From assembly GCA_964543265.1 (NCBI GenBank), contig CAZIWN010000001.1:168644-232643 (forward strand): a stretch of DNA of 64,000 bases, written 5' to 3'. Under the pieces are notes generated by a model. That model did not search any database, was not told the origin of the DNA, and was given only the letters and a program-made list of their open reading frames with translations. Position numbers and translations under genes: made by a program. This stretch comes from an uncultured Candidatus Saccharibacteria bacterium. Its GTDB lineage: Bacteria; Patescibacteriota; Minisyncoccia; UBA6257; 1-14-0-10-40-38. Shown piece by piece: positions 5,501 through 61,812 of this stretch. Positions within the stretch are counted from its first letter, which is position 1; each line of letters starts with the position of its first letter.

Positions 5501-6250
5501 TCATCGAGATTTTTGAGGCATTGCCTCCACCATTCTTCGAACCAACACTGGGTCAAGCTCTGTGTGAGACTTACTAACTCCCGTAGCAACGAGAAAGATA
5601 TCTGCATTCGGAAGAAATAAGTGTACATTTTCTGGAGTAATACCACTAGCGATAGCTAGTGCATGATCCCTAATTGCCTCTCTCATTACACGGATTTTTT
5701 CTGGATCCGGTGGTGATCCGGTTGCATCTCCGCTAGTAGTGATTACTTCCATAAATGGCATAGCAAGCTTGGCGACGCGAGTCAGATCTCTAACTGGAGC
5801 CTGATGCTTGAAGGCCACGCCTCCAAAAATCAGCGGCAGTCCAGGAACTCCTCCTCCTTTGATTGCCATATTAGCTCTTGCAATTCTGCAAGGATCTTCA
5901 TCATCTTCGCGAACGCCGCCATCATCAATCCAAACAGCAAAGATGTTGTGCGTTACTGCTAATCGAACCGCATCTTCACCCGAAAGATCCAGGAAGTTAA
6001 CTCCAATCTCCAATCCCTGCCCTTGGCCCTTCGATGCCCTAAACTCTTTTCTGACAGCAAAGAAATGTTGCAGAAGAGCTGCGTGCATCATCCCGTGGCC
6101 AATTAGAAAGACGCACTTCACGCCAGCATCAAAGGCAATTCTCACGTTTCTCATCACTTGTTGTCTATTCTCTGCGTGGATCACAATAGCCAATATATGG
6201 TTCGTTTGAGTTCCATTTCTTAAGCAGAAAGTTGCTCTGGGAAAAATCAT
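5501..6250 (-). CDS. BtpA/SgcQ-family TIM-barrel protein; GC-rich (about 55%) foreign-looking gene with its own promoter and RBS
   Basis: IGVNFLDLSG and ASGITPENV blocks resemble the BtpA/SgcQ family; minus-strand TTGATT-17-TATATT promoter, AGGAGG RBS then ATG at 6250; GC-rich codons unlike its neighbours. Confidence 0.55.
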   Translation of the reverse strand: MIFPRATFCLRNGTQTNHILAIVIHAENRQQVMRNVRIAFDAGVKCVFLIGHGMMHAALLQHFFAVRKEFRASKGQGQGLEIGVNFLDLSGEDAVRLAVTHNIFAVWIDDGGVREDDEDPCRIARANMAIKGGGVPGLPLIFGGVAFKHQAPVRDLTRVAKLAMPFMEVITTSGDATGSPPDPEKIRVMREAIRDHALAIASGITPENVHLFLPNADIFLVATGVSKSHTELDPVLVRRMVEAMPQKSR

Positions 6251-6331
6251 ATTTAGCTTACGCCTCCTGTGTTTGTTTTTGTTTGTGCTAATTAAAATAT
6301 ATCAACTCTTAAAACTAAATCAATAGAAAAA

Positions 6332-7564: not shown

Positions 7565-8062
7565 ATGATCTCAATAATTGTTGCTATAACTAAAGATAGA
7601 GCTATTGGCTTTAAGGGTGGAATGCCGTGGCGTCTTTCTGCTGATTTAAAAAGATTTGCCTCCCTAACCAAAAAACATACAGTTATAATGGGTCGCAAAA
7701 CTCACGAATCCATTTTAAAAGCCCTAGGTAAAAATTTACCAGATAGAAATTCTGTAATTATCACTAATCAAAAAGATTATTCGGCTCCTGGCTGTACTGT
7801 TCTTCATTCCATAAACGACTTACAAAAAACACTAATTAATAATAATGAAGAAGTTTTTATTATTGGCGGAGGCGAAATGTATAAGCAATTTCTGCCATTA
7901 GCCCAAAAACTATATATCACAGAAGTTGGTAAAGATTATGTAGGCGACACTTTTTTTCCAGAATTTAATAAAAATGATTGGAAAGAAATTTTTAGAGAAC
8001 CTCATGTTGCTGACGAAAAAAACGACTCTCCCTATACCTTTATAGAATTAGTCAGAAAATAA
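7565..8062 (+). CDS. folA: Dihydrofolate reductase
   Basis: MISIIVAITKDRAIGFKGGMPWRL...GRKT...IIGGGE motifs typical of DHFR. Confidence 0.9.
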   Translation: MISIIVAITKDRAIGFKGGMPWRLSADLKRFASLTKKHTVIMGRKTHESILKALGKNLPDRNSVIITNQKDYSAPGCTVLHSINDLQKTLINNNEEVFIIGGGEMYKQFLPLAQKLYITEVGKDYVGDTFFPEFNKNDWKEIFREPHVADEKNDSPYTFIELVRK

Positions 8063-8858: not shown

Positions 8859-8897
8859 AATATATTTGACAAAAACTATATGATTATAATATAATAA

Positions 8898-8951
8898 AAT
8901 GGAGTTGATCGAGGATTTACTAGTTTTTACCACAAGAAACGCTCGTTTCTG
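8898..8951 (+). CDS. 17-aa leader-like uORF (MELIEDLLVFTTRNARFW) in GC-rich minicassette F
   Basis: Starts about 10 nt after TTGACA (8865-8870) / TAATAT promoter; followed by a GGAAU..AUUCC hairpin and then the Cys-rich ORF; speculative. Confidence 0.2.
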
Positions 8952-9006
8952 GTGAAGACAGGAATATCCTCACATTCCGCTAAGCGCGGAAAGAAAGGCT
9001 CGTAAG

Positions 9007-9111
9007 ATGAATCTCTTCGGCAAGTCTCGTTTCGACCTGGTCGCCTCCATCTGCTCCGACTGCGTCAAGGGCGACCACTGCGGCGGTTGCAACTGCTGCA
9101 AGCATCGCTGA
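9007..9111 (+). CDS. 34-aa cysteine-rich peptide (MNLFGKSRFDLVASICSDCVKGDHCGGCNCCKHR), GC-rich minicassette F immediately downstream of lexA
   Basis: Upstream promoter with TTGACA at 8865-8870; a 17-aa leader-like uORF (8898-8951) lies between promoter and this ORF; RBS-like AAAGAAAGG; 7 Cys in 34 residues; terminator hairpin UAGCCAACUU..AAGUUGGCUA at 9118-9150; below the ORF-track length cutoff. Confidence 0.4.
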   Translation: MNLFGKSRFDLVASICSDCVKGDHCGGCNCCKHR

Positions 9112-9164
9112 GATCAAATAGCCAACTTTCATTAGCAGTGGAAGTTGGCTACAATTTTATTAAA

Positions 9165-9608
9165 ATGAAAAACAAAATAGATAAAAAAATAAAACCTACC
9201 GTTTTTATTCTGAATAAGTTAGACATAAAAACTACTGGCTCTTGCGAAGGGCATATTTCTTATGGTTCGCCTTGTCCATGGATAAAAATTTCAGAATCAA
9301 TTGATAATAATTTAAAAAAAGAAACGATTAAATTAATAAAAGAATTTTATAAAAATAAAAAAATAAATAAGAATATAAATCTAAAATTAAAGGATGGAAA
9401 ATCCGGATTTTGGCTTTATACTGGCCCTAAAAAAGATTTTGAAAATTGGCGAAAATTAGTTGATAAAACCGCAAAAACTATTTCCAAAGGTAAAACTCCG
9501 GAAAAATATATGATATCTGAAAAGGAAAAGGGATTTAGAAAAATTAATTTATTAAAATATCAGCAAGAAATAAAAGAATTTACAAAATTTTTAAAGACTA
9601 AAATCTAG
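9165..9608 (+). CDS. Hypothetical Lys-rich protein (track ORF 9087 has an upstream extension; probable start MKNKIDKK)
   Basis: AT-rich host-type codons begin at 9165; the upstream part of the track ORF is GC-rich terminator sequence of cassette F. Confidence 0.4.
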   Translation: MKNKIDKKIKPTVFILNKLDIKTTGSCEGHISYGSPCPWIKISESIDNNLKKETIKLIKEFYKNKKINKNINLKLKDGKSGFWLYTGPKKDFENWRKLVDKTAKTISKGKTPEKYMISEKEKGFRKINLLKYQQEIKEFTKFLKTKI

Positions 9609-11196: not shown

Positions 11197-11661
11197 TCAG
11201 GCGACCGCGAGCGCCTTGGCGAGAGCTGCACCGAGCGACCCACGGTGGATGCGATCCACCGAAGCCACGGCGGCCCTCAAATCACCGACCGGCATGTCCG
11301 GCCTGGAGACGATCTGCGCCCTGCGAACCGGCGCGACCACCTTCGGACGTTTGGGCTGCGCGACAGGGGCCGCCTTCAGGATCCGAAGCGGGCTCACCAC
11401 GAGGATGAAAACCCTCTTCATCACGTAGGCACCGATGATGTTGAGGCTCTGCACCTCCCACATCTCGCCCGCCTTCGGCTGGTAGGTGGCACCACGGTCG
11501 ATGACGACCTCGGCGACCCATCCGTCGGAGAGGTCCTCGAGTCGGCCCTTCAGCTGCGGCCCGCCCAGCGTGGTGTTGGTCCCGACGAAGAACGTGACCG
11601 CGAACCGCGGCGGCGTGATGTTCCGAATCGCCCGGTCGAGACGCGCATCGAGAAACGCCAT
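11197..11661 (-). CDS. GC-rich minicassette G: 154-aa hypothetical protein with Ala/Pro/Arg-rich C-terminus
   Basis: Minus-strand TTGACA-18-TATAAT promoter (plus 11736-11765), RBS GAGAGGG, own terminator; antisense ORFs in this island look like low-complexity junk. Confidence 0.4.
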   Translation of the reverse strand: MAFLDARLDRAIRNITPPRFAVTFFVGTNTTLGGPQLKGRLEDLSDGWVAEVVIDRGATYQPKAGEMWEVQSLNIIGAYVMKRVFILVVSPLRILKAAPVAQPKRPKVVAPVRRAQIVSRPDMPVGDLRAAVASVDRIHRGSLGAALAKALAVA

Positions 11662-11871
11662 CGGTATACCCTCTCGAAATCCTTCATTCCCTCAAGCGCC
11701 ATCTTGCGACAGCAGAAACTCAAGGTACTTCCTATATTATATCATAATATATCTATATTTGTCAATAGATATACAAATAACCCTTAATTTTAATGATTTT
11801 ATCAACTATTGACTTATATATTAATTATTGCTATAATTAGGAACAGAACAAGGTCAAAAAAGGAGAACGTC

Positions 11872-12090
11872 ATGATTCACTGGTTCCAGGTCTGCGACGT
11901 CGTGGAGGCACTTCTAGACATCACCACTCCCGGTTTTGGCAACGAAGGCACCACGATTTTCAAGGGAACACGGGGAATCGTGGAAAAAATTCTCCGTTCA
12001 GAAGGCAACCTCAGGGTTTCCTGGGAGTTGGGATCAAGTCAGACCATCAGCTTCGTCGTTGCTGAAGCTGGGGTCAAAGCAATCGGCTAG
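11872..12090 (+). CDS. GC-rich minicassette H: 73-aa hypothetical protein, divergent from G
   Basis: TTGACT (11809-11814)-17-TATAAT (11832-11837), RBS AAAGGAGAA, ATG 11872; compound terminator AGCGCCGC..GCGGCGCU + U-rich at 12094-12160. Confidence 0.45.
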   Translation: MIHWFQVCDVVEALLDITTPGFGNEGTTIFKGTRGIVEKILRSEGNLRVSWELGSSQTISFVVAEAGVKAIG

Positions 12091-12152
12091 TAAGAGACTA
12101 GCCGCCGCCAATAAGCGCCGCAAGTTCGAGCATATCGAACAAGCGGCGCTTT

Positions 12153-19631: not shown

Positions 19632-20045
19632 ATGATATTTTCAAAAACACTTATCCTAATTTCATTATTGGGATTAATCAATGCTCTTTACTTAACCTAC
19701 AAACACTACTTCACAAAAAAGCCACTAGTCTGTTTAGTCGGCGAAAATTGCGAAGCAGTTCTTGATAGTAAATGGAGTCACATGTTCGGAGTTAGGAATG
19801 AAATTCTCGGAGTTTTATTTTATGGTGGAATCTTTACCGGATCTTTAATTTTATTTTTCTATCCACTATTAATACCAAATTTATTATTCTATTTATTTAT
19901 AGGAAGCATTACCGGGGTTTTATTTTCTGGATTTTTAGTAGCGCTTCAAAAATTCGTCATTCATAATTTTTGTTTTTATTGTTTAATCTCCGCCGGATTA
20001 AGCCTATTACTTTTCATTAATTGCGCTTACTTATTTTTATATTAA
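19632..20045 (+). CDS. VKOR-family membrane protein (second copy)
   Basis: Loop cysteines CLVGENC and CFYC active site in a TM helix. Confidence 0.55.
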   Translation: MIFSKTLILISLLGLINALYLTYKHYFTKKPLVCLVGENCEAVLDSKWSHMFGVRNEILGVLFYGGIFTGSLILFFYPLLIPNLLFYLFIGSITGVLFSGFLVALQKFVIHNFCFYCLISAGLSLLLFINCAYLFLY

Positions 20046-20067
20046 AAGAGGGGTCCTGATGGACCCC
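20046..20067. terminator. Bidirectional terminator
   Basis: AGAGGGGUCC UGAU GGACCCCUU hairpin shared by the convergent plus-strand VKOR gene and the minus-strand GC-rich operon. Confidence 0.6.
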
Positions 20068-20259
20068 TTATGAGAACTGAAGACGAAGAACCTGAACGAA
20101 CACACATGGATCAAGATGCTTCTTCCTCCTTGCCTTGAGACAGGCTCTAAACCTAGCCTGTCTTTCGGACACAGCAGTCGACTCAACGGTAACAATTTCT
20201 CCGCTGGGACACCTCACGGAAGCGGAGAAGTTGCGCCACACAGCCGGTGCACGCTTCAT
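20068..20259 (-). CDS. GC-rich minicassette J gene 2: 63-aa basic protein (MKRAPAVWRNF...), translationally coupled to gene 1
   Basis: ATGA stop/start overlap at plus 20256-20259; RBS GGGAGGGGAG inside gene 1; the track ORF has a 7-aa upstream extension. Confidence 0.4.
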   Translation of the reverse strand: MKRAPAVWRNFSASVRCPSGEIVTVESTAVSERQARFRACLKARRKKHLDPCVFVQVLRLQFS

Positions 20260-20471
20260 GGAATGAATCTCCCCTCCCAAAGAGCAAACTCTGGGGACCT
20301 AGAGATGACGTCAATCGCCACCCAGTCAGAGCTTGGAACTTCGTTTTCTGTTTTGAATTTCTCCAAAACAAAGACTCTAGCCCATTTTTCAGACGAAGCA
20401 CAAACCCTCACCTTATAAGTGCATCTCCTCCATGAAACAAGGGCAGACCAAGCGACCGATCTTCTGGCCAT
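20256..20471 (-). CDS. GC-rich minicassette J gene 1: 71-aa protein (MARRSVAWSALVSWRRCTYKV...)
   Basis: Minus-strand TTACAT / CATAAT promoter and RBS AAGGAGATGAGG then ATG at 20471; its stop overlaps the next start as ATGA. Confidence 0.4.
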   Translation of the reverse strand: MARRSVAWSALVSWRRCTYKVRVCASSEKWARVFVLEKFKTENEVPSSDWVAIDVISRSPEFALWEGRFIP

Positions 20472-20596
20472 CTTGGACTCCTCATCTCCTTATTGTACTA
20501 ATATAATTATGGCACATGTAAATATATCTCATCAAGATCTTGTTTCTATATAAACAATAGGTATAATCTTAGTATTAATTTAAAAAATAAAACCAA

Positions 20597-35127: not shown

Positions 35128-35217
35128 TGGCGGAGAGGGGGAGATTCGAACTCCCGGTACCCTTTCGGATACACAGTCTTTCCAGGACTGCGCACTAGAC
35201 CGCTATGCGACCTCTCC
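35128..35217 (-). tRNA. tRNA-Ser (anticodon GGA), long variable arm, CCA encoded
   Basis: RC reads GGAGAGGUCGCAUAGCGGUCUAGUGCGCAGUCCUGGAAAGACUGUGUAUCCGAAAGGGUACCGGGAGUUCGAAUCUCCCCCUCUCCGCCA; anticodon loop CUGGAAA. Confidence 0.9.
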
Positions 35218-39323: not shown

Positions 39324-39376
39324 TCTGTTAGTAAGCCATAATTGACTTTATATAACATACTTGCTATTATAGACGT

Positions 39377-39860
39377 CAGCACCTGTGACCGTCCTTTGTT
39401 CTGGATTTCCAATTAGGCAGACAGTTCGGGCGATGCTGTCTATGCGGAGATTCGAATGAGTCGGTCTGTTACGCTGTCTGGTCTCGTTCTTTTTCACAGC
39501 GAGGCTTGGAGGAGCCTCTTCTATGCGCGCACCGTGTTGATCCGTTTCCCGAGGGTCGCTCTGAAGTTCCTTCCCACTCCTCGCTTTGCGAGAACTTTCT
39601 GGCAACTGATCGTTCAGGGCTGGAGACTGCTTTGCAGGATCCTTGATTCTGAACCCGTTACCATGATGTTCCTGGCACTCCTGCTGCTCGGGGTCGTCAC
39701 GATGCGTTCGTGCGATCCGACGGCCGAAGAGCTGAGAGCGATGGAGTCTTCTTCCGGCACCCTCCTTCCGTGATCTGATCGGAGTCGACATCTTCTCATG
39801 CGTAGCATCTGGGTAGTGAGCGCCTTCAAACCTGCGGGTTCTGGGGGCGTTTTTTTTAGA
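39377..39860 (+). other. GC-rich minicassette M: promoter TTGACT (39377-39382)-17-TATTAT (39400-39405), about 430-nt GC-rich transcript, U-rich terminator about 39835-39858. Possible 105-aa ORF 39456-39773 (RBS GCGGAGA; single TM-like segment)
   Basis: Coding versus non-coding unresolved; the antisense 174-aa ORF (39348-39872) is low complexity and has no room for a promoter. Confidence 0.3.
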
Positions 39861-41633: not shown

Positions 41634-42131
41634 CTATTCGCCCATCACCTCAAGACGATCGAACAGAGACTTGAACCAAGAGAGAGCACCAACTTTTCTT
41701 GCAACCCTATTACCCATACCAGGGCGCATCTGACAAAAAGAGACAGCAAAAGCAATAGTTATTGCAGAGTCTATCTCGGGAGAAATCCCAACAAAGGCCA
41801 CAACGAGTCCACTATGACTCACAGCTCGGGATTCCGCGGGTGGAAGAGCAGCTGAAGATCCAGCGACCCTAACAACCATCTCTCTTGCGACAATACAACT
41901 TCGCGAAGCTGTTGGATTATGAGGAATTGTTCCAATCCTCGCGCAGATAACTTCTTGGCCTGTATCACTATTAGCAAGACAGAAGTATCCGCCACTGACT
42001 TCACCAAGCTTGAATACCCTTCTTGCCTGCTGGAAAATCATGCCAATCCGCGAAACAGCATCTGCAGAATTAGCAACAATAGCGACAGTAGTAGCCCCAT
42101 CTCTCTCAGCGACCATCGTCGGTTGAGACAC
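41634..42131 (-). CDS. GC-rich minicassette N: approximately 166-aa hypothetical protein, possibly Ntn-hydrolase/proteasome(HslV)-like (GATTVAIV after a short propeptide)
   Basis: Minus-strand TTGACC-17-TAATAT promoter abutting the upstream gene stop; RBS AAGGGGAGGA then GTG (42131); the track ORF starts at an upstream TTG; weak similarity to HslV RRV..G..AG..D block. Confidence 0.35.
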   Translation of the reverse strand: MSQPTMVAERDGATTVAIVANSADAVSRIGMIFQQARRVFKLGEVSGGYFCLANSDTGQEVICARIGTIPHNPTASRSCIVAREMVVRVAGSSAALPPAESRAVSHSGLVVAFVGISPEIDSAITIAFAVSFCQMRPGMGNRVARKVGALSWFKSLFDRLEVMGE

Positions 42132-42214
42132 GCCGATCCTCCCCTTTTTGGCAGGTTTTTTGGAAACTTCAAAGAGCTGAAACAATATTAAATTAATAAA
42201 ATAAACTGGTCAAT

Positions 42215-42868: not shown

Positions 42869-42940
42869 TCCGGAGTAGTTCAGTGGTAGAACGCCTCGCT
42901 GTTAACGAGGATGTCGTAGGTTCGATCCCTACCTCCGGAG
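42869..42940 (+). tRNA. tRNA-Asn (anticodon GUU)
   Basis: Acceptor UCCGGAG/CUCCGGA, anticodon stem CCUCG/CGAGG with loop CUGUUAA, T arm GUAGG-UUCGAUC-CCUAC; the 3' end is the target of a downstream repeat array. Confidence 0.9.
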
Positions 42941-43064
42941 CAAAAATAAAATACCCCTTCTGGGGTTGTTTTATTTTTGTTTTGAAATGGATCGAACCGA
43001 AGGTCAAAATCACGCAGTGATGAGATTTCGACTGAAAGGAGAAGCGATCCCTACCTCCGGAGCC
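42936..43064 (+). repeat. Direct repeat copy 1 (129 bp): tRNA-Asn 3' end + terminator (ACCCCUUCUGGGGU + Us) + 65-bp spacer + 21-bp tRNA-3'-end mimic gcgatccctacctccggagcc
   Basis: Identical by eye to 43503-43631; the mimic recapitulates ttcgatccctacctccggagca of the tRNA (att-like). Confidence 0.75.
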
Positions 43065-43146
43065 GATATTTGACAATAATATAACAGTATGCTATTATCC
43101 AGATAGTTCCGAAAGTTAAAAATCGAGCAGGAAAGCGAGGTTAGAA

Positions 43147-43320
43147 ATGGATACGCAAAAACTCGTGGAACTCGTACGCCAATGCACAAAAATCGTCGTT
43201 AGAGAAGGGCAGAATACCACTGGCGATATGTCCGCTGTGATTCCCTTGCTACAAGCTGCGCTGAGAGATTTGCCCTCCGATCAGGTCCAGAAGGCCATTC
43301 TCGAATACAACAATGATTAA
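43147..43320 (+). CDS. Cassette O: 57-aa hypothetical protein (MDTQKLVELVRQCTKIVVREGQNTTGDMSAVIPLLQAALRDLPSDQVQKAILEYNND)
   Basis: TTGACA (43070-43075)-17-TATTAT (43093-43098), RBS AAAGCGAGG, ATG 43147; dual-hairpin terminator 43362-43435; GC-rich. Confidence 0.45.
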   Translation: MDTQKLVELVRQCTKIVVREGQNTTGDMSAVIPLLQAALRDLPSDQVQKAILEYNND

Positions 43321-43502
43321 GACAAGTAATACTGCCTAGGAACGTCCTGATATTTCGATATGTGTCGCGCAAAGCGACACGCCCCCCCCCGTTGGAGGAA
43401 TTTCGATGATTTCTCCCGGGGGCTTCGTTTTTTTATCTCAAATCGGGAATATAAATATATTCATTTTGTCGTGCTATAATATTTCTAATATCCGATACTG
43501 TT

Positions 43503-43631
43503 CGGAGCAAAAATAAAATACCCCTTCTGGGGTTGTTTTATTTTTGTTTTGAAATGGATCGAACCGAAGGTCAAAATCACGCAGTGATGAGATTTCGACT
43601 GAAAGGAGAAGCGATCCCTACCTCCGGAGCC
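43503..43631 (+). repeat. Direct repeat copy 2 (129 bp), identical to 42936-43064
   Basis: Same sequence, including the terminator and the 21-bp tRNA 3'-end mimic. Confidence 0.75.
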
Positions 43632-43700
43632 ACTTATTTGACAATATTATTTATATATGATATTCTTTTTATAGAACAATTTCCAACAAGGAGAGAAGAG

Positions 43701-43898
43701 GTGCACCGCTATCTCATTACAATTTCGTTCACGCCCGGTCGAGATGGATCTGAGAGAACGACGGAGTGTTACGAAGTGAGTATGGAGCAGCCGATTCGTT
43801 CCATGGATCAACTCAATGCAGAAATCAGGAAGCTCTGCGATGTAAAAAAGATTGCTGGGCACGTGACCCCGATTGCGTTTTCTCGATTCTCCGAATAA
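43701..43898 (+). CDS. Cassette P: 65-aa hypothetical protein (GTG start; VHRYLITISFTPGRDGSERTTECYEV...)
   Basis: TTGACA (43638-43643) promoter homologous to cassette O, RBS AAGGAGAG, GTG 43701; the track ORF 43533-43898 runs spuriously through the repeat. Confidence 0.4.
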   Translation: MHRYLITISFTPGRDGSERTTECYEVSMEQPIRSMDQLNAEIRKLCDVKKIAGHVTPIAFSRFSE

Positions 43899-43920
43899 CT
43901 CAAACCAGAGGAGACGTCCC

Positions 43921-44094
43921 GTGAATCAGTCCAGCGGACAGGAACCGAAAGTTCAACAGGAAAAGCCGCGACAAGAATTCCCTCCCTGCACCAACAAGGA
44001 ATGCGAGTGCTATGAGTCTTCTGCTCGTGTCGGGCCAGCTGCATCGATCCCGCGCGCCTACTACTGCTACGAGTGCTGCAACATCTTCTTCTGA
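43921..44094 (+). CDS. Cassette Q: 57-aa cysteine-rich peptide (..PPCTNKECECYESSARVGPAASIPRAYYCYECCNIFF)
   Basis: RBS GAGGAG 6 nt before GTG 43921; 7 Cys in the C-terminal 36 residues; terminator 44110-44177 homologous (about 78%) to cassette O terminator. Confidence 0.4.
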   Translation: MNQSSGQEPKVQQEKPRQEFPPCTNKECECYESSARVGPAASIPRAYYCYECCNIFF

Positions 44095-44206
44095 TGCGAA
44101 TTCTAATATATCGCGCAAAGCGCGAAACCCCCGGTTAGAGAAATTTAGATGATTTCTCACGGGGGATTCTTTTTTTGTCTCAAATGTAGTGTGATATTAT
44201 TACAAT

Positions 44207-44632
44207 ATGATAACAATCAATCCTTGGATTAACTTCAATGGTAATGCTGAAGAAGCTTTTATATTTTACAAATCAGTCTTTGGCGGAGAATTCACAAAAA
44301 TTATGCGCTTTAAAGACTTAGCAGGGCCAGAATTTCCCGTAGCAGAAAATGAAGCAAATAAAATAATGCACATTGCCCTACCTATTGGTAAAAATTTTTT
44401 AATTGCCAACGATATTCCAGAAAGTATGGGACGGGTGAGTGAAAATGAAAATAGAAGCAAAATCAAAATTAGCACAGAGAGTAAAGAAGAAGCAGATAAA
44501 TTATTTAATGGACTTTCAGTTGGCGGGAAAGTGGAAATGCCTATTGCCGATAGTCCTTGGGGATCATACTTTGCAATGCTTAGAGATAAATATGGTATTG
44601 AGTGGATAATTGAATTTTCAAAAACAAAATAA
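44207..44632 (+). CDS. VOC-family (glyoxalase/PhnB-like) protein
   Basis: ITINPWINFNGNAEEAFIFYKSVFGG N-terminus typical of the PhnB-like/3-demethylubiquinone-9 3-methyltransferase domain. Confidence 0.65.
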   Translation: MITINPWINFNGNAEEAFIFYKSVFGGEFTKIMRFKDLAGPEFPVAENEANKIMHIALPIGKNFLIANDIPESMGRVSENENRSKIKISTESKEEADKLFNGLSVGGKVEMPIADSPWGSYFAMLRDKYGIEWIIEFSKTK

Positions 44633-60371: not shown

Positions 60372-61103
60372 ATGAGCATATTTAAAGGACATCATCACGT
60401 AGAAAAACACTTAAAAGGTAATATAAAATACTTGGGAGATTTAGTTTTTGGAGCCAATGATGGAATCATAACAACTTTTGCAATCATCTCTGGTTCAGCC
60501 GGAGCATCTCTTTCATCAACAATTATTATTATTTTAGGGCTTTCAAATATATTAGCCGATGGAATTTCTATGGGTTTTTCAAATTATTTAGCTCTTAGAT
60601 CTCAGAAAGATTATGAAATTCAAGAAAGAGGTAGAGAAATTTATGAAGTAGAAAATTTTCCAGAAGAAGAAAAAAAAGAAGTTAAGGCAATTTTTAAACG
60701 CTGGGGAATAACAGACGAGTCTGATCTAGAAAGACTAACAACATCTGCCACTAAAGATCATAAAAAATGGGTTGACTTAATGATGATCGAAGAATTAGGA
60801 ATTATCGAAAGCGATATACAGTTCCCATGGAAACACGGCTTTGTGACATTTTTAGCCTTCATAGCGGCGGGTTCAATGCCACTTATTCCATACTTCTTTT
60901 CAATCTCGCAATCTAATCAATTCTCAACATCTATCCTATCAACGGCGGCATCTCTATTTATTGTAGGATCTATGAGATCTTTAGTAACTAAAATTCATTG
61001 GCTGAAATCTGGCTTACAAATGTTGTTTGTGGGAAGTTTAGCTGCAGGTTCAGCCTATCTTGTTGGTTTCTTGATAAAAACAGTTTTCAATATATCTATT
61101 TAG
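60372..61103 (+). CDS. VIT1/CCC1-family iron/manganese transporter
   Basis: LGDLVFGANDGIITTFAIISGSAGA and C-terminal TM bundle. Confidence 0.7.
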   Translation: MSIFKGHHHVEKHLKGNIKYLGDLVFGANDGIITTFAIISGSAGASLSSTIIIILGLSNILADGISMGFSNYLALRSQKDYEIQERGREIYEVENFPEEEKKEVKAIFKRWGITDESDLERLTTSATKDHKKWVDLMMIEELGIIESDIQFPWKHGFVTFLAFIAAGSMPLIPYFFSISQSNQFSTSILSTAASLFIVGSMRSLVTKIHWLKSGLQMLFVGSLAAGSAYLVGFLIKTVFNISI

Positions 61104-61147
61104 TTTAATATTGAAAAATATTTTTAAAAAAGCTATAAATATAAATA

Positions 61148-61335
61148 GTCCTTCAAACCAGTTCAGGGAGAATAAGCTTGGGGAAAAGACGGGTTCGCCG
61201 CGAAGCACGAATGTCTGGCATCTGGAAGCGATTCACTTGCAGGCTGATACGGACAATCGCGTGGGCTAGGGTTCGCCCCTAACCAAGCTTCGCAAACCCC
61301 TCTCGCAGCCGAAAGACCTTCGGCTGCTTTTTTTT
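61148..61335 (+). ncRNA. Candidate structured sRNA R: closing helix AAGCUUGGGG...CCCCUAACCAAGCUU, then terminator module
   Basis: TTGAAA-17-TATAAA promoter (61112-61140); no ORF; terminator GCAGCCGAAAGACCUUCGGCUGC + U8 (61292-61335). Confidence 0.3.
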
Positions 61336-61410
61336 ACTTGAAAAATAACTAATATAATGCTAAAAAACATATAGCCCTTCAATTTCATCGCCAACCAGGA
61401 GGAATTCAAA

Positions 61411-61755
61411 TTGACCCAAAAGAAGAAAGGCGGCGAAATTAAAACAATTAAGCCGCTGATGGATCCTCTTACTGATCCCGCAACTGCAGGAATCAGAAGA
61501 CAGATTCAGGTACAGATCCGAAGGCTTCAACAAGGAGACGGCGTCGAGAAAACTGGTCCGAAACAGACCAAGCATAAGTGCGCGACACCTCGTTGCAAGG
61601 GACGCCTCGTCGAAGACATCTGCCATGAGTTCGACCCCACTTCGGGACCACCTATTATCGGTCCCGGCTCCAGATCACAGTTCAACAGAGTTTCTCGTGG
61701 CTTCTACTGCAACACCTGCGGCGTAAAATATCAGTTCCCTCCAAAGAAGAAATGA
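61411..61755 (+). CDS. GC-rich minicassette S: 114-aa basic zinc-ribbon protein (TTG start)
   Basis: RBS CAGGAGGA 7 nt before TTG 61411; C..C(x3)C and C..C pairs; flanked by duplicated terminator module. Confidence 0.4.
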   Translation: MTQKKKGGEIKTIKPLMDPLTDPATAGIRRQIQVQIRRLQQGDGVEKTGPKQTKHKCATPRCKGRLVEDICHEFDPTSGPPIIGPGSRSQFNRVSRGFYCNTCGVKYQFPPKKK

Positions 61756-61769
61756 GCTCTTGCTCATTT

Positions 61770-61812
61770 CGCAAACCCCTCTCGCAGCCGAAAGACCTTC
61801 GGCTGCTTTTTA
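61770..61812 (+). terminator. Second copy of the 45-nt terminator module CGCAAACCCCUCUCGCAGCCGAAAGACCUUCGGCUGCUUUUU
   Basis: Near-identical to 61292-61335. Confidence 0.6.

Follow-up and report, generated by a model that had tools for sequence, protein, structure and literature searches.

The tRNA-Asn locus and its repeated module

The stretch analyzed here, referred to as the window, comprises 64,000 nucleotides (nt) of contig CAZIWN010000001.1 (assembly GCA_964543265.1, positions 168,644 to 232,643), and the subject of this report is an array of short gene cassettes that follows a tRNA-Asn gene on its plus strand. The tRNA-Asn gene (42869-42941; anticodon GTT; recognized by ARAGORN, by the Rfam tRNA model at 72 bits, and from its sequence) anchors the array. 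Its last 19 nt, CGATCCCTACCTCCGGAGC, which make up the 3′ half of the T-loop, the 3′ strand of the T-stem, and the 3′ strand of the acceptor stem, are called O. The repeat finder detected three exact copies of O, starting at 42923 (O1, the tRNA's own end, 42923-42941), 43045 (O2, 43045-43063), and 43612 (O3, 43612-43630). An earlier sequence-only reading of this DNA had described a 21-bp copy of the tRNA 3′ end; the copy is present, but it consists of 19 exact bases plus one mismatched base on each side.

O2 and O3 lie at the right end of a perfect direct repeat. The segments 42936-43064 and 43503-43631 are identical at 129 of 129 positions by the repeat finder, self-BLAST, and pairwise alignment, and a repeat of this kind cannot be due to chance. 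These comparisons confirmed the repeat and its proposed boundaries, as well as its start within the tRNA 3′ end and its extension across the tRNA terminator. Copy 1 begins 6 nt inside the tRNA gene with CGGAGC and continues through the bidirectional tRNA terminator hairpin (42942-42980; stem at 42953-42966, with T-runs on either side). This is followed by the L arm GGATCGAACC (42989-42998), which exactly matches the reverse complement of GGTTCGATCC (42919-42928) in the T-loop region of the tRNA, by a conserved structured core, GAAGGTCAAAATCACGCAGTGATGAGATTTCGACTGAAAGGAGAAG (42999-43044), and by O2, the R arm, a direct copy of the tRNA 3′ end after which the sequence reads CCG; the repeat includes the first C. 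In copy 2, the terminator stem is at 43520-43533, the L arm at 43556-43565, the core at 43566-43611, and O3 at 43612-43630. The terminator hairpin, L arm, and core are together designated X, and the module ending in the R arm is designated X-O. We infer the tandem order of the two copies on one molecule from an assembly of the metagenome type.

The 3′ ends of the three O copies differ in their continuation. The tRNA-Asn gene has no encoded CCA (GGAGC is followed by AAA; GCAAA at 42939-42944), whereas two other tRNA genes of the window, tRNA-Gln (2019-2092) and tRNA-Ser (35128-35217), do encode it, and O3 followed by CA completes an encoded CCA (GCCA, 43628-43633). Because these two genes encode CCA, tRNA-Asn does not, and O3 reads GGAGC-CA, O3 carries the signature expected of the original 3′ end displaced by insertion, with the present 3′ end of tRNA-Asn having arrived with the foreign DNA. 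The displaced copies agree with the earlier suggestion that the tRNA gene bears the footprint of integration, apparently twice over. However, the repeats are not simply the attL and attR of two integrations, because they are identical over much more than the 19-nt tRNA copy, and copy 2 adjoins only 6 tRNA-like nt at its left edge.

Each repeat is followed by a self-expressing cassette with its own promoter and terminator, as the sequence-only reading had described. In the pairwise alignment of the two units, the repeats are followed by three variable bases and then by 12 identical bases, TATTTGACAATA, which include the −35 box. Both promoters are near-consensus sigma-70 promoters with a TG element (TTGACA-17-TATTAT at 43070-43098 in cassette 1 and TTGACA-17-TATTCT at 43638-43666 in cassette 2, both on the plus strand). 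Cassette 1 encodes open reading frame 1 (ORF1; 57 amino acids [aa]; 43147-43320, plus strand), with a Shine-Dalgarno sequence, GAGG, at 43136-43139, about 6-7 nt upstream. It ends with a dual-hairpin terminator module (43360-43443) and an AT-rich tail (43444-43508) that contains TGCTATAAT (43473-43481) and the right-end motif TTTCTAATATCCGATACTGTTCGGAGC (43482-43508). Cassette 2 encodes ORF2 (65 aa; 43701-43898; GTG start, Shine-Dalgarno AAGGAG) and ORF3 (57 aa; 43921-44094; GTG start, Shine-Dalgarno GGAG), both on the plus strand, and ends with a second dual-hairpin terminator module (44106-44185), after which a host gene (glyoxalase/PhnB-like) starts at 44207. Both terminator modules end with TCTCAAAT. 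Aligned with each other (43365-43443 versus 44111-44185), they are 82% identical with both hairpins kept, and their folding is far above that of shuffled sequence (z −4.3 for module 1 and −4.0 for module 2). The cassette interiors gave no alignment between the units; the description of three unrelated ORFs within related promoter and terminator shells was thus borne out.

The cassettes have a GC content of 46-55% (about 50%) compared to 34% for the window, a base composition foreign to the host. Their bodies fold worse than shuffled sequences (z +1.8 and +2.0; +1.8 for the ORF1 mRNA), which fits mRNA and is unlike structured RNA, and cassettes as structured noncoding RNAs were dropped on this ground. 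All three ORFs are orphans. A search with the three concatenated against 5.8 billion proteins found no homologues beyond the genome's own gene call, and a full HMMER scan with ORF2 against 1.84 billion representatives returned only one other match, a eukaryotic low-complexity repeat. No Pfam, PHROG, NCBIfam, or PADLOC match was found for ORF1-3, and exact look-ups of the window proteins gave no recorded match. The NCBI gene call for ORF2 (P0001, 114 aa; 43554-43898) starts at an ATG within the repeat module and reads through the promoter; this call is probably too long, and the 65-aa GTG start with its AAGGAG Shine-Dalgarno sequence appears likelier.

ORF3 contains 6 cysteines (CX4CXC...CX2CC), not 7 as first counted. 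The accompanying idea of a toxin or a precursor of a ribosomally synthesized and posttranslationally modified peptide found no support: there is no family match and no maturase gene, and the AlphaFold2 model, with a predicted local distance difference test score (pLDDT) of 55.6, is unusable. The CX4C...YCX2C pattern of ORF3 shows a weak likeness (pairwise E 0.029) to the 114-aa product of a GC-rich unit at 61411-61755. As a lead only, this suggests a small zinc-ribbon-like protein. In the tail of cassette 1 (43473-43508), the extended −10-like TGCTATAAT is accompanied by a small hairpin, TCCGA-tactgt-TCGGA, followed by GC; this hairpin is a mimic of the tRNA-Asn acceptor stem, which is palindromic (TCCGGAG/CTCCGGA).

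The module and its cargo in other genomes

Copies of the X-O module in other genomes, on seven contigs numbered in the L040-L050 series (six from metagenomes and one from a metagenome-assembled genome), were found by three routes. A metagenome scan with the displaced tRNA end, GCGATCCCTACCTCCGGAGC, as the query gave five relevant contigs with the same upstream architecture. A search for spurious ORF calls with the translated module yielded a further two, L049 and L050; the same search with the minus-strand module translation gave no matches. Checking for tRNA 3′ copies in loci already collected added L040, a Colwellbacteria metagenome-assembled genome (MAG). Three other contigs from the metagenome scan (L044, L045, and L048) were rejected as chance matches in unrelated higher-GC DNA. 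One of them, L044 (31 kb, 47% GC, not Patescibacteria-like), carries at 7700-7880 the same 20-nt tRNA-Asn end in AT-rich intergenic DNA with repeated CAGTAAAA motifs; the match probably arose by chance or is what remains of an unrelated att, and no integrase lies nearby.

The copies have a plan in common: a tRNA gene, a terminator hairpin, an L arm of 10-18 nt, a core, and an R arm (O) that is a direct copy of the last 16-22 nt of the tRNA. The L arm reads as the reverse complement of the local tRNA from its T-loop region onward, with comparable arms in L049, L050, L041, and L040. The module occurs beside a variant tRNA-Asn (L049), tRNA-Trp (L050), and tRNA-Asp (L040), with a partial copy at tRNA-Met (L040), and further on contigs L041/L047, L042/L043, and L046, the last of which has two tandem modules and no cargo. 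The arms match whichever tRNA adjoins. For instance, the L and R arms are GGATCGAACC and CGATCC...GGAGC in the window, TAGGATTCGAACC and CGAATCCTACCGCCGGAGC in L049, GGCACTAGGAATCGAACC and CGATTCCTAGTGCCCCCGC in L050, and GGGATTCGAAC (one mismatch to the tRNA) and GTCCCGTCCGCTGCGC at the tRNA-Asp gene of L040, and the arm at the tRNA-Met gene of L040, GGCAGGAATCGGAC, copies the unusual T-loop of that tRNA.

The core starts with G(A/T)AGG or GAAAGG and has a purine-rich end, and in its 47-nt form it is 85-93% identical among the window, L046, L049, and L050 despite their differing genomes and tRNAs. Other cores are ~80, ~110, ~130, and ~210 nt long, with the tip of the inner hairpin swapped or enlarged and the hairpin kept. 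A covariance model of the module (R1) scored the copies at 74-104 bits, including 102.9 bits for each of the two window copies (42982-43063 and 43549-43630). Cargo-free modules stand beside tRNAs in L049, L046, and L040.

In L040, the sequence at 5680-5745, after a minus-strand tRNA-Met gene (5743-5815), is a left half-module only, consisting of the terminator, GGCAGGAATCGGAC, and TGAAAAGGG; no direct copy of the tRNA 3′ end was found at this locus. A truncated second unit after the tRNA-Asp gene (6223-6285) breaks at a similar point, which may correspond to the left end of cargo-bearing elements.

Elsewhere the module was not encountered. Rfam 15 had no family over any module copy at E ≤ 1, and only tRNAs were detected. 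Among viral contigs, the terminator pattern and the core pattern gave 0 matches each, and the displaced-end pattern (1 match, in a coding region) and a short core pattern (24 matches, in coding DNA) gave chance matches only. Annotated phages and plasmids contained no module match. The literature covered on integrons and attC sites in Patescibacteria and on tRNA islands in the Candidate Phyla Radiation, itself an incomplete sample, describes no such module.

Six aligned module sequences share a consensus fold in which 98% of the cells pair; sliding the partners lowers this to 33-54%. Both sides have changed in six of the pairs, among them a C-G to U-A change in helix 2. Two G·U pairs are invariant or nearly so, which makes the fold specific for the plus strand, the same strand as the tRNA, and the unpaired purine-rich stretches are conserved as well. 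The outer stem formed by L and R varies in length, with 6 bp in the window and in L042, 10 bp in L041/L047, and 14 bp in L050.

Several known elements were considered for this structure and rejected. A hammerhead or other small ribozyme is suggested by the core, which has GUGAUGAG..GAAA, but there is no Rfam match and C3 is replaced. Neither ARAGORN nor the tRNA model found a minus-strand tRNA or tRNA-like gene. The arms overlap and pair together, and there is no transposase, unlike the case of guides of the IS110 bridge RNA type. Hairpin ends of the IS200/IS605 type create no long target copies, and a primer-binding site of the retroviral type does not apply since the L arm stops short of the tRNA 3′ terminus.

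The cargo next to the module turns over between related genomes. One example is the comparison of L041 with L043; L041 and L042/L043 come from one sample series. The two share a common left side (the right-end motif of a cargo, the module, O, and a further 12 nt) and a right host flank of 94% identity, with unrelated cargo in between: an AT-rich gene of 276 aa in L041 and GC-rich minus-strand orphan genes in L042/L043. The check proposed in the sequence-only reading, whether payloads differ elsewhere between conserved modules, has a positive outcome. In L042, different cargo and a module with a long core occupy the stretches between three O copies. L050 has a 1.33-kb cargo with two ORFs between O2 and O3, and the sequences that adjoin these two O copies on their right side are homologous to each other. 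The right ends of the cargo are also alike across genomes: compared by eye, TTTCTAATATCCGATACTGTTCGGAGC of the window and GTTCTAACATCGTCCAGTAGGGGGAGC of L041-L043 agree at 15 of 27 positions and are of equal length. The window's own three ORFs occur on no other contig found. Finally, a 79-nt segment is repeated in L040 with different borders; it extends from O through the first 19 nt of the core and points to homology-driven duplication acting on such arrays.

Host neighborhood and other GC-rich units

The array is set among ordinary host genes (GroEL, pyruvate kinase, and glyoxalase-like, SRPBCC, and RibD-C-like proteins). Among species-representative genomes, the closest matches of the neighboring pyruvate kinase come from Patescibacteria MAGs only (Paceibacterota, Harrisonbacteria, and Parcubacteria; 57-64% identity), and the host is a member of the Patescibacteria with a genome of the Paceibacterota/Parcubacteria type. 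The synteny around tRNA-Asn is not conserved in the pyruvate kinase relatives. No PHROG matches were found near the cassettes, and no phage, plasmid, or Xer genes were seen in the window.

Further GC-rich units occur in the window, about 10 at at least 7 sites, with a GC content of 46-64% (1-292, 1106-1950, 8866-9190, 11197-12150, 20023-20492, 39342-39860, 41634-42185, and 61100-61810). Each combines a near-consensus sigma-70 promoter with a strong terminator, and a small orphan ORF is usually present. The tRNA module does not border any of them, and Pfam, NCBIfam, and PADLOC gave no match. The promoter at 39342, TTGACTTTATATAACATACTTGCTATTAT, resembles that of cassette 1. Two adjacent units share an identical 37-nt terminator, CGCAAACCCCTCTCGCAGCCGAAAGACCTTCGGCTGC (61293-61330 and 61772-61808), and thus form a second tandem pair with a shared terminator shell; one of the two has no obvious ORF, and the other encodes the 114-aa CX4C...CX2C protein. 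On the minus strand at 1106-1950, just upstream of tRNA-Gln, lie three consecutive GC-rich units that have individual terminators and are closed by long-range stems, such as the pairing of GGAGGCGGGAC at ~1481 with GTCCCGCCTCC at ~1618. These three look like structured small RNAs, and none has an Rfam match at the gathering threshold. A 183-aa ORF of 48% GC (41634-42185, minus strand), 0.7 kb upstream of tRNA-Asn and without a family match in any library, may be another foreign unit on the opposite side of the tRNA gene.

Interpretation and comparison with known systems

The best reading is that of a small accretion array at the tRNA-Asn 3′ end, with the order tRNA(O1)-X-O2-cassette 1-O*-X-O3-cassette 2-host gene, where O* is a decayed O that retains only CGGAGC. 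We lean, with a little better than even confidence, toward a site-specific tRNA-anchored cassette array in which X-O is the attachment module and a recombinase acts in trans. A recombinase encoded elsewhere would act at the tRNA gene's segment from the T-loop to the 3′ end, and X-O would be the attachment site on the side of the element. The exchangeable unit would be the cargo plus O* and X, bounded by intact O sites, and it could be inserted, lost, or swapped at any intact O. The X-O copies are 100% identical over 129 nt compared to only 77-82% for the shells, which suggests that the last step was either very recent or proceeded via homologous exchange or gene conversion between X-O copies (Campbell-type or unequal).

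The role of the inverted L arm could be explained in two ways that are not mutually exclusive. On a folded strand, pairing of L with R may restore the tRNA site as a duplex, adjacent to a bubble of unpaired AACC/GA(A/G)G, which is the principle of the integron attC and the CTXφ attP. Alternatively, attP may be a duplex whose arm includes L as an additional recombinase-binding site in inverted orientation; the box GG(T/A)TCGA(T/A)CC in the T-loop is nearly palindromic. A more far-reaching version, that Patescibacteria possess an undescribed integron-like cassette system with the folded module as the cassette-side site, is put forward as a tentative possibility that we doubt more than we believe. 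In such a system, the docking site would be the tRNA gene's segment from the T-loop to the 3′ end, and the module would be strand specific, its arms being inverted and direct tRNA copies. It would act as a retargetable attachment hairpin, rematched to Asn, Trp, Asp, and Met tRNAs, and tiny self-expressing orphan genes would be moved between ultrasmall genomes by a recombinase supplied in trans.

A number of observations weigh against the site-specific reading. The recombinase is entirely hypothetical, because no integrase, recombinase, or transposase turned up when ~50 ORFs across the 64 kb were scanned with Pfam, in agreement with the earlier remark that no mobility gene is nearby, and none lies near the module in the related contigs, which are short (0.8-13 kb). 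The payload type is not specific to the tRNA-Asn locus, as GC-rich units without a module occur elsewhere in the window. The 129-nt identity is sharp edged, and copy 2 joins only 6 tRNA-like nt; homologous or unequal recombination predicts this, whereas a clean site-specific event between two O sites does not. Cassette 2 (43632-44185) lies beyond O3, with no O or tail remnant further downstream. As for the fold, the window module folds no better than shuffled sequences (z −0.25 and −0.63) and its L/R stem has only 6 bp. The covariation comes from only six sequences, with the structure derived from the same alignment, and that of the arms could reflect copying from the tRNA instead of selection for pairing. 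The tandem order, too, could be an assembly collapse.

Some of these observations would be explained if there were no site-specific system at all. An ancestral tRNA-X-O-cassette could have been expanded by unequal crossing-over, Campbell-type homologous recombination, or slippage, including recombination with DNA taken up from relatives, with X-O being merely conserved tRNA-flanking DNA. Perfect, sharply bordered identity over 129 nt, much beyond the 19-nt tRNA copy, is what such a process would leave, the 79-nt repeat of L040 with its different borders fits a tandem O-X duplication, and the homologous DNA to the right of O2 and O3 in L050 and the lack of a recombinase in the window point the same way. 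It is nevertheless an unlikely full account, as it leaves unexplained why the same core stands beside tRNA-Asn, tRNA-Trp, and tRNA-Asp in distant genomes with rematched arms, why the arms include an inverted T-loop copy, and why unrelated foreign cargo sits exactly at O in related genomes.

The cargo turnover at O likewise stands against the idea that X-O is primarily a functional RNA, for example a tRNA trailer or tRNA mimic transcribed with or after the tRNA, in which case the cassettes would have landed in a permissive intergenic spot and the repeat would be an RNA gene duplication. This would account for the hairpin conserved with compensatory changes, the G·U pairs that tie the fold to the tRNA strand, the conserved unpaired purines, and the arms of L050, whose 14-bp stem mimics an acceptor/T minihelix that ends in the true tRNA 3′ end. 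However, a strong terminator separates the tRNA from X with no conserved promoter before X, pairing like that of the minihelix is not a conserved feature, with 6 bp in the window, the stability of the window copy does not exceed that of shuffles, and there is no Rfam family, all of which makes an RNA function quite improbable. We consider it a shade less probable still that the tandem order is an assembly artifact, which could coexist with any of the other explanations; strain variants, or a chromosome and an excised or plasmid-like circle, that share the 129 nt would have been joined serially. The genome is of the metagenome-assembled type, its nearest GTDB relatives are all MAGs, its only database twin is one NCBI contig, the repeat exceeds typical k-mers, and the cargo at such loci is polymorphic between related genomes. 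Yet the sample must contain each of the five types of junction, that of the cassette 1 tail to CGGAGC-X among them, which means that at least X-cassette 1-X, or a circle of cassette 1 plus X, would be real, and multicopy arrays occur independently in L042, L046, L040, and L050.

The gene content of Patescibacteria varies widely. To our knowledge, these bacteria, which have minimal genomes, are thought to be poor in classical mobile elements. If the trans-acting, site-specific explanation holds, a tRNA-matching attachment module bordering interchangeable mini-genes would be a concrete route by which they gain and shuffle accessory genes, and the covariance model would serve as a searchable marker for such hot spots. 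If, in addition, the module were a folded site that mimics its target, it would be the third independent case of hairpin-based site-specific recombination after the integron attC and the CTXφ attP, and its target specificity could be read from the sequence, which would be of interest for engineering. If there were only an inherited scar and homologous exchange, the locus would be an ordinary small genomic island.

The individual cassettes resemble phage morons in having a sigma-70 promoter, an ORF, and an intrinsic terminator with deviating GC content; unlike morons, they lie beside a tRNA gene in the chromosome among host genes, not in a prophage, with units at at least 7 other intergenic sites. 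The array as a whole is like integron arrays in its site architecture. As in integrons, including chromosomal arrays with attC repeats of the VCR type, and in clusters of attC sites lacking integron integrases (CALIN), a site of ~120-130 nt recurs between small cargo units, and arrays occur without a nearby integrase, as in CALIN. The site itself is an imperfect palindrome with conserved ends, a variable central hairpin (here 47 to ~210 nt), and a strand-specific fold. However, intI is absent, a tRNA 3′ end takes the place of attI at the start of the array, and the cassettes carry their own promoter and terminator with varying cargo orientation (minus strand in L042/L043). Compared with the attC boxes RYYYAAC/GTTRRRY, the L arm has ATCGAAC (6 of 7) and the R side begins GCGATCC without GTTRRRY, and the site arms are copies of the target gene. 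The locus is therefore not a member of the integron family, and of the sequence-only reading's term "integron-like," the functional analogy stands, whereas intI, the attC consensus, and promoterless cassettes are lacking.

The folded attP of CTXφ and of other integrative mobile elements exploiting Xer (IMEX) also has two inverted target-like copies tens of bases apart that can fold into a duplex site with an unpaired center. Those elements form tandem arrays and use a host-encoded recombinase in trans, as we would infer here. The target in the window, in contrast, is a tRNA T-loop and acceptor stem rather than dif, and no phage genes, Xer genes, or signs of a single-stranded stage were seen; with no dif and no Xer, the locus is not an IMEX element.

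The closest likeness is to tRNA-gene islands, cis-mobilizable elements (CIME), and tycheposon satellites, in which an intact tRNA gene has its 3′ part repeated downstream, several units pile up at a single tRNA without an integrase of their own, and cargo of foreign composition varies between relatives. Islander recognizes islands in tRNA genes by a displaced tRNA fragment (PMC4383910). The window has such fragments in O2 and O3, each 19/19 identical and O3 with CCA, but the integrase expected next to att inside an island was found neither among the ~50 window ORFs nor in the related contigs, and foreign DNA, which should end before the last displaced fragment, continues with cassette 2 beyond O3. 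Tandem units flanked by att and free of recombination genes, as in CIME, are present in the window, L042, L046, L040, and L050. Tycheposons likewise stack in tandem at tRNA genes, with newer elements pushing older ones outward (bioRxiv 10.1101/2020.12.28.424599). The units described here differ from such islands in being 0.12-0.7 kb rather than kilobases long, with no integrase-bearing parent element found, and in one cargo junction that keeps just 6 nt of the tRNA. At their junction stands a conserved structured module that includes the target in inverted copy; described att sites have no such part. Accretion anchored at a tRNA gene is thus a known process, whereas an attachment module built from inverted and direct copies of the tRNA looks like an undescribed one.

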